Source: a virus (lineage: Duplodnaviria; Heunggongvirae; Uroviricota; Caudoviricetes). Taken from it: DNA of 4,538 nt. The position numbers and the translations under genes are program-made. Below are positions 985-3,769 of the stretch, in pieces. The number at the start of each line of letters is the position of its first letter. Position 1 is the first letter of the stretch. The stretch is taken from the IMG/VR virus record IMGVR_UViG_2734482587_000007. The stretch is one strand, 5' to 3'. The notes beneath the pieces were generated by a model. It was not told the DNA's origin and ran no database searches. It saw only the letters and a list, made by a program, of their open reading frames with translations.

Positions 985-1140
985 TTACTTCCTGGATTCG
1001 TAGTCTACGAAGACAGCGACCTCCGTCTGGCCGGTTCGGATTCGTACCTCACAGAGGTCTTTCCTCGTTACCAGTGCCGTCACTATGACGGTTAAACAGA
1101 TGACGATCAGGGCGATTAACATCGCCTTTTGCTGCTTCAT
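985..1140 (-). CDS. hok: Hok/Gef-family type I toxin (51 aa)
   Basis: Translation is MKQQKAMLIALIVICLTVIVTALVTRKDLCEVRIRTGQTEVAVFVDYESRK. This has the Hok/Gef single transmembrane helix and the conserved RKDLCEV..R.GQTEVA core, and is closest to HokD/RelF as I recall it, with a different C-terminal tail. ATG at 1140-1138, stop TAA at 987-985. Confidence 0.9.
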   Translation of the reverse strand: MKQQKAMLIALIVICLTVIVTALVTRKDLCEVRIRTGQTEVAVFVDYESRK

Positions 1141-1197
1141 AGCCTGCTTCTCCTTGCCTTTCGGCATGTAAGAGGCTAACCTACATGTGCAAAGCAT
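985..1197 (-). CDS. mok: Mok-like in-frame leader ORF (70 aa) overlapping hok
   Basis: An in-frame upstream ATG at 1197-1195 gives MLCTCRLASYMPKGKEKQA followed by Hok, resembling the chromosomal mokC/hokC arrangement as I recall it. GAGG lies about 9 nt upstream. Confidence 0.55.
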   Translation of the reverse strand: MLCTCRLASYMPKGKEKQAMKQQKAMLIALIVICLTVIVTALVTRKDLCEVRIRTGQTEVAVFVDYESRK

Positions 1198-1250
1198 GAA
1201 ATTGGCCTCAGATTAATGTTAAGCGTCTTGCCGGACGCGTAATGTTAACT
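1188..1250 (+). ncRNA. sok: putative Sok-like antisense RNA (approximate ends)
   Basis: Inferred from locus architecture: the antisense RNA should cover the mok start/SD (ATG 1197-1195, SD near 1207-1210). A weak plus-strand promoter is TTGCCT 1154-1159, 17 nt, TAACCT 1177-1182. A GC hairpin sits at 1223-1238. No clear U-tract terminator was found, so the 3' end is a guess. Confidence 0.3.
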
Positions 1251-1316
1251 GGGGCTTTTCTCTATCTGCCTTTTGGTGTTCATGCCTGAAGCAGATAGCC
1301 TCAAGCACCCGCAGTC

Positions 1317-1346: not shown

Positions 1347-1367
1347 TCAGAAAGGTGCCCCATAAAA

Positions 1368-2054
1368 TCACTCCTTCTCTTCTTTACCGTAGTGGAGTTG
1401 ACCAATTTTGATAAGAGGGCGTCCCTGAGATTTGCGGTGTAGATTGGTATCGCGCAGAGAATACACACAGCCACAATATTCCTGCTGATAGAATTTTTCG
1501 CGCTTGCTGATTTCAATCATACGGGACGAGCCGCCCTGCTTGCGCCAGTTATAATCCCAGTACACCATGCCCGGATAATGCGCGACGGCTCGCCGCCCAC
1601 AGTCGTTAACCTGCTGCATATTTTTCCAGCGTGAAATGCCCAGTGAACTGCTGATCACACTGAAACCATTTTCAGCGGCGTACAGCGCTGTCCGCTCAAA
1701 ACGCATGTCAAAACACATGGTGCAACGGATCCCTCGTTCGGGCTCCCATTCCATTCCTTTGGCTCGTTCAAACCAGTTGTCTGTGTCGTAATCAGCATCA
1801 ATAAACGGCACGCCGTGTTGTTCAGCAAAGCGAATATTCTCATCCTTACGAATTAAATACTCTTTCTGAGGATGAATGTTCGGGTTGTAGAAAAAGATGG
1901 TGTAGTCGATTCCCGAGGCCTGAAGCGCCTCCATCACCTCACCGGAACATGGAGCACAGCAAGAGTGCAGTAGTAGTTTGTTTGCCCCGTTTGGGAGCTC
2001 CAATTTGGGCCGTTTGAAATCAGCAACTGTCATAAATATGTTTATTGGGGTCAT
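1368..2054 (-). CDS. queH: QueH-like protein (DUF208, epoxyqueuosine reductase family), 228 aa
   Basis: The translation contains [11 protein letters not shown] near the N-terminus, CTMC mid-protein and EYCGCVYS near the C-terminus, the cysteine pattern I associate with DUF208/QueH. ATG at 2054-2052 (alternative ATG at 2033), stop TGA at 1370-1368. Assigned from motif recall only. Confidence 0.7.
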
Positions 2055-2201
2055 AAAAATATCAAAGAGTGTAGCATTAGAACGGGGCTATCGGAAACAG
2101 ATGTGTGACTGCTCCCCGCCCTTTCGGGTGGTCTCCTGATGATTTGAGGGTGCAGAAATCCCTCCGGTTAAGGATTAAATTTTTAACAGTGCTAAATTTA
2201 A

Positions 2202-2558
2202 TTATTCAGTTCTGGATTTTGTCGCCCTGCGTATCCGCGCTTTCGCGTTACGCTCAATCTGTATCAGCTTTTCTATATTTCTCCGCCTTTCCTGTTCCTC
2301 CTGGCGCAATAGCCTTACATCATCTGCCAGTCTGGTTTCTCTTTTTGCCACAGAGAGCATCCAGTCAAACGGCTCCACAACCGCACCGCAGATTTTACAG
2401 CGGACCTGACGCTCTTTTTCGTCAACCCGTACAGAGGCGTGATGGCAATATGGTCTTTCCGATGGCTCATAAAGAAAATTAACCTGATTACGAGGGTCAT
2501 CCTCTTTTACCGGAAATAAAACGATATTGCTTAACTCATCTTCTGGTTTTATTTCCAT
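2202..2558 (-). CDS. hypothetical protein with putative Zn-ribbon (C-H-H...C-x2-C) and basic, coiled-coil-like C-terminus (118 aa)
   Basis: ATG at 2558-2556 with AAGGAG 6 nt upstream. An alternative in-frame ATG at 2615-2613 directly abuts the upstream gene's TGA (2618-2616) and would add 19 residues. The protein contains YCHHASV...RCKICG followed by an R/E/K-rich tail. Confidence 0.55.
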   Translation of the reverse strand: MEIKPEDELSNIVLFPVKEDDPRNQVNFLYEPSERPYCHHASVRVDEKERQVRCKICGAVVEPFDWMLSVAKRETRLADDVRLLRQEEQERRRNIEKLIQIERNAKARIRRATKSRTE

Positions 2559-2615
2559 GCTCCTCTCCTTTGATGCGAATGCCAGCGGTAATTGAAGCCT
2601 GATAGCTAATTTCAT

Positions 2616-3038
2616 TCACAGTATCGCCTCCTGAAAATTACCCTGATAGAAAGCCAGTACACGCTGCATAGCTTCGCTCTTCCGGCACTCGCGACAGATT
2701 ATATTCAGGCGCCTGTCGTAGCGGCGTATTTCTCCGTCAGGTAATGACCAGATAAGGTCCGGATCAACAACAACCGGTTTCCTCACCTTTACTCTCGAGA
2801 GTTTTTTGCGGGCGCTTTGCCAGTCCTTGCGAGCCTGTTCAGACGGGAATAAGCCGTAGCCAGAATTATATACATCACCACTTGCGACCAGTTCTATGCA
2901 TAAGCGACCGACAGACGCACGACTGATACCTGTTTCATCTGACAACTGCCGAATCGTGACCCGACCGTCCTGATGCACGAGTTCCACAATTCGCGTCTTC
3001 AGTTCTTCCCGCTGTTCGGGAGTAAAAGGTTTCGCCAT
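2616..3038 (-). CDS. hypothetical small DNA-binding protein with putative HTH/winged-helix N-terminus (140 aa)
   Basis: ATG at 3038-3036 with AGGAGG 5 nt upstream; stop TGA at 2618-2616. The segment TIRQLSDETGISRASVGRLCIELVASG looks like a helix-turn-helix. It starts 14 bp after the DnaC-like stop. Confidence 0.65.
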   Translation of the reverse strand: MAKPFTPEQREELKTRIVELVHQDGRVTIRQLSDETGISRASVGRLCIELVASGDVYNSGYGLFPSEQARKDWQSARKKLSRVKVRKPVVVDPDLIWSLPDGEIRRYDRRLNIICRECRKSEAMQRVLAFYQGNFQEAIL

Positions 3039-3052
3039 AAATCCTCCTGAAA

Positions 3053-3769
3053 CTACTTAACAACCCTCGAATGGCTAACATTCGGACGCCAGCTCTCCCA
3101 GTTAAAATTCACCCAGCGCCCGNNNNNNNNNNNNNNNNNNNNNNNNNNNNNNNNNNNNNNNNNNNNNNNNNNNNNNNNNNNNNNNNNNNNNNNNNNNNNN
3201 NNNNNNNNNNNNNNNNNNNNNNNNNNNNNNNNNNNNNNNNNNNNNNNNNNNNNNNNNNNNNNNNNNNNNNNNNNNNNNNNNNNNNNNNNNNNNNNNNNNN
3301 NNNNNNNNNNNNNNNNNNNNNNNNNNNNNNNNNNNNNNNNNNNNNNNNNNNNNNNNNNNNNNNNNNNNNNNNNNNNNNNNNNNNNNNNNNNNNNNNNNNN
3401 NNNNNNGATAGCTGCCGCTAAGTGATTCTTCCCGGTACCAGGTTTTCCGCTGAACGCAAAATTTGTACACCCGGTCATCAGTTCATCGGCGATGGATTTC
3501 GCCTGGCTTAACGCGTATCGCTGGCCGTCGTTCTGCACCTGGTAATTCGCAAACGAGCATTTACGGTGCAACGGCTGGATGCCTGAGCGATTCAGAATTT
3601 TTTCCACCCGCAACTGGCGATTCAGGCGGTTGATCTCCTCGCTACGTTTCTGGCCTTCAGCAAGTTGCCACTCGCGCCACTCCGCTACCGTTCTGAATGG
3701 GGCGGTTACATGTGGCGGGGTCAGTCGGCGGATGCGTTCCAGAACGCCGCCTGTCGCAATATTTTTCAT
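3053..3769 (-). CDS. phage DnaC-like helicase loader (IstB/DnaC AAA+ family), interrupted by an N gap
   Basis: The N-terminal 120 aa, including FSGKPGTGKNHLAAAI (Walker A), aligns by eye with E. coli DnaC. ATG at 3769-3767, 6 bp after the initiator stop. The middle of the gene is an N run (3123-3406), so the real length and frame continuity to the stop TAG at 3055-3053 cannot be verified. Confidence 0.8.
   Translation of the reverse strand: MKNIATGGVLERIRRLTPPHVTAPFRTVAEWREWQLAEGQKRSEEINRLNRQLRVEKILNRSGIQPLHRKCSFANYQVQNDGQRYALSQAKSIADELMTGCTNFAFSGKPGTGKNHLAAAIXXXXXXXXXXXXXXXXXXXXXXXXXXXXXXXXXXXXXXXXXXXXXXXXXXXXXXXXXXXXXXXXXXXXXXXXXXXXXXXXXXXXXXXXXXXXXXXGRWVNFNWESWRPNVSHSRVVK
3123..3406. other. 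assembly gap or masked block (284 N)
   Basis: Uninterrupted run of n inside the DnaC-like gene. Confidence 1.

Follow-up and report, generated by a model that had tools for sequence, protein, structure and literature searches.

Two types of enzyme are described for the reduction of epoxyqueuosine (oQ) to queuosine (Q) in tRNA: QueG, which requires cobalamin (PMC4646009) and is among the four cobamide-dependent enzymes of Escherichia coli (PMC11841063), and QueH, which is characterized as a cobalamin-independent reductase (summarized in PMC5615194). Most cobamide-using bacteria cannot make cobamides de novo (PMC11841063), and Staphylococcus aureus keeps both QueG and QueH and expresses them differentially (PMC13443448). 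Phages also carry genes of the queuosine and archaeosine pathways; in the phage 7-deazaguanine DNA modification clusters described by Hutinet et al. (2019), DpdA is encoded together with FolE, QueD, QueE, and QueC and DNA is modified, and no homologue of QueA, QueG, or QueH turned up among the viruses examined there (PMC6884629). Here, we describe a queH gene carried on the minus strand of a 4,538-nucleotide stretch of Caudoviricetes DNA, referred to as the window (IMG/VR record IMGVR_UViG_2734482587_000007). It probably codes for a functional QueH that was captured once by an Escherichia lambdoid phage lineage and serves as a B12-independent isozyme for the conversion of oQ to Q in the lysogen.

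Identity and extent of queH

The maximal open reading frame (ORF) extends over 1368..2054 on the minus strand and codes for 228 amino acids (aa). The Pfam QueH model (PF02677; IPR003828) matches it end to end, with residues 27 to 201 aligned to model positions 1-174/175, at a score of 220.6 bits and an E value of 1.9e-65 (gathering cutoff, 23.5). The best relative in the PDB is the Thermotoga maritima QueH (7lc5; E value, 5e-22; residues 27 to 203 against 4 to 178). At the level of sequence comparison, the Pfam and PDB matches settle the identity of the gene, and the original prediction of a QueH-like (DUF208) gene at 1368-2054 is borne out, as the ORF is real and its profile match is strong. 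The exact protein is named QueH by NCBI, with the RefSeq name "epoxyqueuosine reductase QueH." A search of the protein against NCBIfam gave no QueH match, and the name assigned by the Prokaryotic Genome Annotation Pipeline (PGAP) must therefore stem from another rule. The identification of queH is thus not new, with the family, chemistry, and protein name already in databases.

The true start is almost certainly Met8 at position 2033, predicting a 221-aa protein rather than one of 228 aa (queH coding sequence [CDS], 1368..2033, minus strand; stop codon, 1368-1370). This start is favored because the Met8 ATG (2033-2031) is invariant among the aligned prophage and chromosomal copies, the ATG at 2054 is lost in other copies (it is ATT with a downstream in-frame TAA in strain A10, and ATT in Enterobacter), the amino acid replacements among alleles cluster in codons 2 to 6, with four of the seven extension codons varying, and the PGAP call is also 221 aa. 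The in-frame seven-codon upstream extension (2034..2054, minus strand) is probably 5' leader and not coding. A noncoding gap of 147 bp had been reported upstream of the gene; this is correct for the 228-aa ORF, measured to the upstream ORF at 2202-2615, and becomes 168 nucleotides (nt) with the Met8 start.

Conserved residues and predicted fold

Residues are numbered here as in the 228-aa ORF (seven is subtracted for 221-aa numbering). We aligned 65 family members: the window protein, T. maritima QueH, and 63 representatives that diverge from one another and were selected from a set of 1.84 billion clustered proteins. Seven cysteines (C32, C33, C36, C111, C114, C194, and C196) are of interest, and six of them, C32/C33/C111/C114/C194/C196, align with T. 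maritima C9/C10/C87/C90/C169/C171, forming a CC...CxxC...CxC pattern that is invariant in all 65 sequences. N59, E65, R69, E106, R110, K144, Q191, and G195 are likewise invariant, and all are present in the window protein; a second alignment of 42 sequences returned the same invariant set. The six cysteines are reportedly the metal center ligands of the solved T. maritima enzyme, an assignment credited to Li and coworkers in 2021. Conservation of the metal ligands relative to a structurally characterized QueH, the check suggested for the prediction, is thereby complete, with all six cysteines aligned and present.

The equivalent of T. maritima Asp13 is Cys36, which lies in the CCAPC motif; among the 65 sequences, this position is Cys in 61 and Asp in four. 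PDB entry 9dco (D13N) carries a substitution of Asp13, a catalytic residue in T. maritima QueH. We considered the cysteine as a mark of a divergent, phage-specific subfamily and rejected this, as Cys is the family majority.

An AlphaFold2 model built from the 42-sequence alignment has a mean confidence (pLDDT) of 95 and a predicted template modeling (TM) score of 0.91. The top five Foldseek matches are all T. maritima QueH entries (TM score, 0.90 to 0.92; root mean square deviation [rmsd], 1.2 to 2.0 Å), and superposition on 7lc5 gives a TM score of 0.92 and an rmsd of 1.2 Å. The next matches are TtuA/LarE-type PP-loop proteins at E values of about 1e-4, ten orders of magnitude weaker. The model has the QueH fold, with its adenine-nucleotide-alpha-hydrolase-like Rossmann core. 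T. maritima QueH (7lc5, 7lc7, and 9deu; PF02677, formerly DUF208) thus shares family, fold, the six cysteines, and the further invariant residues with the window protein, although the two are only ~30% identical, and the window protein has a basic C-terminal tail of ~25 residues past the Pfam domain that is common to other Enterobacterales QueH proteins. Membership in the QueH family is as secure as computation allows, and catalysis is predicted from it.

Strong purifying selection on the prophage gene

The prophage copies were compared across 90 prophage or viral loci. The 221-aa frame is intact in 89 of these, and the remaining locus, in strain A10, has an intact indel variant annotated by PGAP as a 669-nt QueH CDS. 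There are 22 nucleotide alleles, which collapse to nine protein alleles, and the ligand positions do not vary among the 22. The pooled ratio of nonsynonymous to synonymous polymorphism (pN/pS) is 0.044 (22 alleles, 90 loci, with up to ~0.29 synonymous substitutions per site). Pairwise ratios of nonsynonymous to synonymous divergence (dN/dS) between the window and the other alleles are 0.04 to 0.11 at dS values of up to 0.18, and for the two most divergent alleles, dN/dS is 0.07 at a dS of 0.29. Judged by these substitution patterns, queH is clearly kept for its protein product and is not a decaying passenger.

A discrete cassette of probable Enterobacteriaceae origin

BLASTN comparison of ten queH prophages and loci places the gene within a homology block of ~740 nt (the queH cassette; 1362..2104, minus strand) that is present in all of the prophage contexts, as well as at queH loci of Enterobacter hormaechei and Scandinavium. 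Its break-points recur at ~1362-1364, just past the stop codon, and at ~2081-2104, ~50 to 70 nt 5' of the start (loci L002, L003, L005, L006, and L084-L089). Cassette DNA is 83 to 85% identical to the E. hormaechei and Scandinavium loci, and the homology with chromosomal copies runs through the 5' leader and a -10-like element. In GC content, the cassette does not stand out from its flanks.

The -10-like element is a putative extended -10, TGcTACACT (2076 to 2068, minus strand), which starts 43 nt upstream of the ATG and is proposed on the basis of conservation. It is contained within a block, TCTRATGCTACAC, that is kept between prophage and chromosomal copies whose flanks are otherwise unalignable; the element is present in 88 of the 90 prophage or viral loci, and TGnTAnAnT, TATATT, or TAAACT-type elements are found equally far from the start at many chromosomal queH loci of Enterobacterales. 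Between the cassette and the upstream gene is a context-specific spacer (2105..2201, minus strand) that is not shared with other queH prophages. The spacer holds a GC-rich hairpin, CCACCCGAAAGGGCGG (~2113-2131), with no U-tract. We rejected this hairpin as a significant structure or terminator: its fold z score is -1.09 relative to shuffled sequences, it is missing from other queH prophages, and no terminator was called there.

The best 120 homologues listed are 75 to 99% identical to the window protein, and those with a named source are nearly all annotated as QueH; most are from Enterobacterales, including Erwinia, Photorhabdus, Providencia, Proteus, Gibbsiella, Pantoea, and Serratia symbiotica. 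Amino acid identity is 85 to 92% to Enterobacter and Scandinavium QueH and 78 to 86% to that of other Enterobacterales. In a neighbor-joining tree, the prophage alleles group in one tight clade within the Enterobacteriaceae, with the Scandinavium, E. hormaechei, and Kluyvera sequences as its sister group. The topology is in keeping with one acquisition event, in which a lambdoid phage lineage took up an Enterobacteriaceae queH together with its leader.

Among 80 species-representative genomes, queH has prophage neighbors only at Escherichia and Shigella loci. The other loci have genus-specific flanks, mostly ordinary chromosomal genes where checked, such as a radical-SAM protein gene and glycogen phosphorylase (glgP) in Serratia marcescens, and a sulfatase-family protein gene and mqo in Kosakonia; an exception is E. 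hormaechei B56, in which queH adjoins an integrase-family fragment. Enterobacterales QueH proteins (Enterobacter, Scandinavium, Kluyvera, Erwinia, Serratia, Proteus, and Providencia) have the same length and C-terminal tail as the prophage copy but lack prophage neighbors, whereas the Escherichia and Shigella copies examined are all inside lambdoid prophages. The statement in the original prediction that enterobacterial hosts normally use QueG therefore holds for E. coli, in which all 5,426 complete genomes carry queG, and does not extend to the order Enterobacterales, as QueH is chromosomal in Enterobacter, Erwinia, Serratia, Pectobacterium, Proteus, Providencia, Rahnella, and others.

Identity of 80% across Pseudomonas, Lysobacter, and Salinicola was considered as a sign of a mobile clade and rejected, as the flanks are genus specific and not prophage; some of these unexpected taxon labels may reflect contaminated assemblies. 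We also note QueH proteins with 77 to 86% identity in assemblies labeled Pseudomonas lundensis, Pseudomonas piscis, Martelella alba, "Candidatus Avacidaminococcus," and Sphingomonadaceae (L051, L080, L071, L062, and L081). Serratia-like or Proteus-like sequence surrounds some of them, which suggests mislabeling, contamination, or horizontal transfer.

The cassette is similar to lambdoid morons and ren-nin accessory genes in being a discrete, variably present foreign cassette located between conserved genes and equipped with a candidate promoter. The suggestion that queH is accessory cargo and not part of the core replication machinery is well supported by the discrete ~740-nt cassette with its recurrent limits, its patchy presence, the alternative cargo carried in its place, and the location of its closest relatives at nonprophage loci.

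Distribution and annotation

Among the 5,426 complete E. coli genomes, 995 (18%) carry queH, almost always as a single chromosomal copy, and the exact protein sequence is present on at least 1,000 contigs at NCBI. IMG/VR contains 189 viral contigs with close relatives. A DNA search (megablast) of isolated phages recovered only HannyBb (PP925841), in which queH is CDS0046 (L002 6001-6687) and is called hypothetical; a small overlapping ORF is also annotated there. A protein search of isolated phages returned short, unannotated human fecal "Bacteriophage sp." contigs at 31 to 50% identity, with the viral label taken from the record. Two "Acinetobacter phage MD-2021a" records (CAKLQH020000001.1 and CAKLQF020000001.1; 78% identity) were rejected as evidence of phage carriage. 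They are 328 to 379 kb long, soxR, cynX, tadA, and ycaQ surround QueH in the stretch examined in CAKLQH020000001.1 (L170), and the records look like bacterial contigs mislabeled as phage.

Among phage annotation resources, PHROG 3217 matches the protein at an E value of 2e-138 and is labeled "unknown function." Its profile has 188 positions and starts at QueH residue 41, past the CCAPC motif, and many phage records probably call queH from an internal Met. PHROG 3217 should be annotated as QueH. A literature search found no paper describing a phage-borne QueH, and prophage carriage seems undescribed so far; one candidate, PMC6206895, was rejected because the match is to an author name, Quehenberger.

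The tRNA-specific end of the queuosine pathway is thus common cargo of E. coli prophages, in contrast to the main survey of viral 7-deazaguanine genes, which reported no QueA, QueG, or QueH in the viruses it covered (PMC6884629). The novelty is ecological, in a widespread and strongly conserved prophage copy of the last queuosine step that is redundant with the B12-dependent host enzyme and has been missed by phage annotation resources.

Proposed role of the prophage QueH

We propose that the prophage QueH, as an iron-sulfur, cobalamin-independent enzyme, would reduce oQ to Q, the last step of queuosine synthesis, converting oQ34 to Q34 in the tRNA-Asp, tRNA-Asn, tRNA-His, and tRNA-Tyr of the host. 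Its gene would have entered the phage lineage a single time, from an Enterobacteriaceae donor, on a ~740-nt cassette that brought along a 5' leader and a probable extended -10 promoter; the accessory slot that this cassette now occupies is flanked by the Ren-like gene and hok/sok, where the nin region starts. Because queG is in all 5,426 genomes, and hence in every queH carrier, the prophage gene would always provide a second, nonhomologous isozyme beside the host QueG; in MG1655, queG is the annotated epoxyqueuosine reductase. QueG is predicted to catalyze the same reaction on the same tRNAs, but the two enzymes are unrelated in fold and cofactor, and queG is a core chromosomal gene whereas queH is phage borne in 18% of genomes. 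The pairing resembles that of QueG with QueH in S. aureus, and MetE kept beside MetH.

In 1988, Frey and coworkers reportedly described a requirement for cobamides in this step in E. coli and Salmonella. E. coli is unable to synthesize B12 de novo, and because QueG needs cobalamin, a lysogen in which QueH is produced could complete Q synthesis independently of scavenged B12 when the vitamin is scarce, a lysogenic conversion, or moron, benefit. The gene is under strong purifying selection despite the host isozyme, which implies a real benefit, most plausibly B12 independence. We infer that the protein acts on tRNA, that it is expressed from its own promoter in the lysogen, and that B12 independence is the selected benefit. 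The earlier interpretation of the gene as prophage QueH cargo was essentially right, with enzyme activity predicted from homology.

Several observations weigh against this proposal. A literature search found no activity, expression, or tRNA modification data on a prophage QueH, nor a phenotype separating oQ-tRNA from Q-tRNA, so that a fitness benefit of the last step is hypothetical. With regard to expression, a two-hexamer promoter scan did not call TGcTACACT, and the putative promoter is a matter of conservation; in addition, no obvious Shine-Dalgarno sequence precedes either candidate start when the sequence is read directly. A terminator scan found none flanking the cassette, which, together with the putative nature of its promoter activity in the lysogen, sets it apart from lambdoid morons. 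Read-through from the phage early operon is an equally possible expression route, because queH is co-oriented with the early operon genes. Finally, Cys36 is the family norm, yet it means that the T. maritima enzyme, the sole structural and mutational model (D13N, 9dco), does not transfer one to one to the window protein.

Alternative explanations

An alternative benefit is that QueH is a phage-host conflict factor, with the Q or oQ state altering susceptibility to anticodon toxins or nucleases, or altering NAU/NAC translation for the phage. This would be the reason for its retention in a prophage hotspot of defense and counterdefense genes. Q status is linked to the translation of biofilm and virulence genes (PMC10570037), and the strong selection despite the host isozyme is as expected for such a role; the slot at whose edge queH sits holds restriction-modification systems and a Kiwa KwaB-like gene in other prophages, and Ren-like and toxin-antitoxin genes are neighbors. 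Proximity to a defense hotspot is weak evidence, however, as the same slot carries many unrelated morons, and no PADLOC-DB defense component model matches QueH at an E value of ≤0.01. We know of no nuclease that discriminates oQ from Q. The chemistry would still be that of QueH, and this explanation, which we consider improbable, differs from B12-independent Q synthesis only in the selected benefit. Similarly unlikely is the broader claim that QueH is a lysogenic conversion or conflict factor that, by freeing Q completion from scavenged B12, changes the chemistry of four tRNA anticodons in roughly one in five E. coli strains. Were it true, the affected strains would include O157:H7, sequence type 131 (ST131), and avian pathogenic E. 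coli (APEC) lineages, there could be selectable effects on the translation of NAU/NAC-rich genes, on virulence or biofilm traits, or on sensitivity to anticodon toxins or competing phages, and no enzyme dedicated to the tRNA-specific branch of queuosine synthesis would have been known from a phage before QueH.

A second alternative is that queH has no function and is a neutral hitchhiker, carried along by the hok/sok addiction module and the success of the prophage. In every E. coli strain, queG makes it redundant; it is also tightly linked to hok/sok (70 of the 90 loci) and is missing from complete K-12 assemblies that retain part of the hok region, with queG as the annotated reductase of MG1655. 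However, a neutral gene is expected to have a pN/pS ratio near 1 and to be often disrupted, whereas the observed ratio is 0.044 and all 90 frames are intact, and the cassette persists where other cargo has replaced hok. We thus regard neutral carriage as quite improbable.

A role of QueH in 7-deazaguanine DNA modification or another nontRNA pathway, for example to evade restriction, has some precedent in the phage-borne pathway genes noted above and in the restriction-modification pair beside queH in some prophages (O157:H7 Z1768; 13 of the 90 loci), but we give it very little credence, as the window has a lone QueH without partners, no DpdA/TGT-like (tRNA-guanine transglycosylase-like), FolE, QueC, QueD, or QueE gene is annotated in ~32 kb of prophage (L001, integrase end to baseplate genes) or, for DpdA and preQ0 synthesis genes, in six further queH contexts, and with 85 to 92% identity to Enterobacter QueH and every family-invariant residue kept, nothing suggests a change of substrate. 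To our knowledge, no oQ-based DNA modification has been described. The flanking-gene check thus lends no support to the original suggestion of a 7-deazaguanine pathway; the deazaguanine DNA modifications covered in the viral survey are of the preQ0 and archaeosine types (PMC6884629).

Neighboring genes and the variable slot

The window contains about nine co-oriented genes on the minus strand. Upstream of queH are an O-like replication initiator gene, a DnaC-like ydaV gene, a DUF977/Ren-like gene, and a small zinc-ribbon gene, and downstream are hok/mok/sok, a small PHROG-340 gene, and a NinB-like DUF1367 gene. The predicted placement in the replication/nin region is thus confirmed, with replication genes on one side and the NinB-like gene on the other. 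The DUF977/Ren-like gene (2616..3038, minus strand; Pfam DUF977, E value of 1e-33; PHROG 142, "Ren-like exclusion protein") is the upstream neighbor of queH in 83 of the 90 loci, and hok lies downstream in 70. The zinc-ribbon-like gene (2202..2615, minus strand; PGAP, 2202-2558), of unknown function, matches phrog_1621 (E value, 5e-56) and, weakly, a TFIIB zinc ribbon; it is located between DUF977 and queH in only ~13 of the 90 loci and is a variable insert.

Other genes lie downstream of queH in some prophages. These include an NgoMIV-type restriction enzyme gene with a C5 cytosine methyltransferase gene (O157:H7 Z1768; L085 2806-4816), genes for a Kiwa KwaB-like protein and its partner (WCHEC96200; L089 3153-4792), and a DUF1971 gene (A10; L087 4037-4375); a cytosine methyltransferase gene follows queH in 13 of the 90 loci. 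The slot directly downstream of queH is a prophage defense hotspot in other strains, and sister prophages that likewise have DUF977 and hokD as flanking genes hold DUF7167 or hypothetical genes in place of queH. We conclude that queH is accessory cargo at the edge of a variable, defense-rich slot in Rac/Qin-type lambdoid prophages. A Qin-type prophage of NCTC10537 has the order DUF977, queH, hokD, rem, and DUF968.

E. coli FDAARGOS_944 has a complete prophage, integrated beside ybhA/modC, that contains DNA identical to the window. The same prophage codes for four tRNAs (Gly, Thr, Arg, and Ile; L001 17102-17412) in the interval from the Q-like region to the lysis genes, and these do not include a tRNA of the Q-bearing type (Asp, Asn, His, or Tyr). 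In complete K-12 assemblies, the match to the window is confined to ~903-1154, a part of the hok region (annotated hokD; ~91% across some 250 nt), and both queH and the sok/leader region are missing; the segment carrying queH thus seems to have been lost from the K-12 relic.

The hok/mok/sok type I toxin-antitoxin cassette (985..1310, minus strand) contains the hok CDS at 985-1140 and a mok-like 70-aa ORF at 985-1197. The hok/sok cassette predicted beside queH is substantiated by a Pfam Hok/Gef match (E value, 1e-22), a PGAP annotation as hokD, and a match to the Rfam sok model (RF01794; 117 bits; 1135-1310). The Rfam match is on the same strand as hok, although Sok RNA should be antisense to the leader of the hok mRNA; it seems, therefore, that the model either was built in the sense of the hok mRNA or spans the whole regulatory region. 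Directly after the queH stop codon is a promoter-like sequence, TTGATT-18-TAGAAT (1346-1317, minus strand), which is a candidate hok/mok promoter. At the other end of the window, 284 N residues at 3123-3406 mask the middle of the DnaC-like ydaV-family ORF (3053-3769, minus strand), which is unmasked in the identical locus of FDAARGOS_944 (L001).

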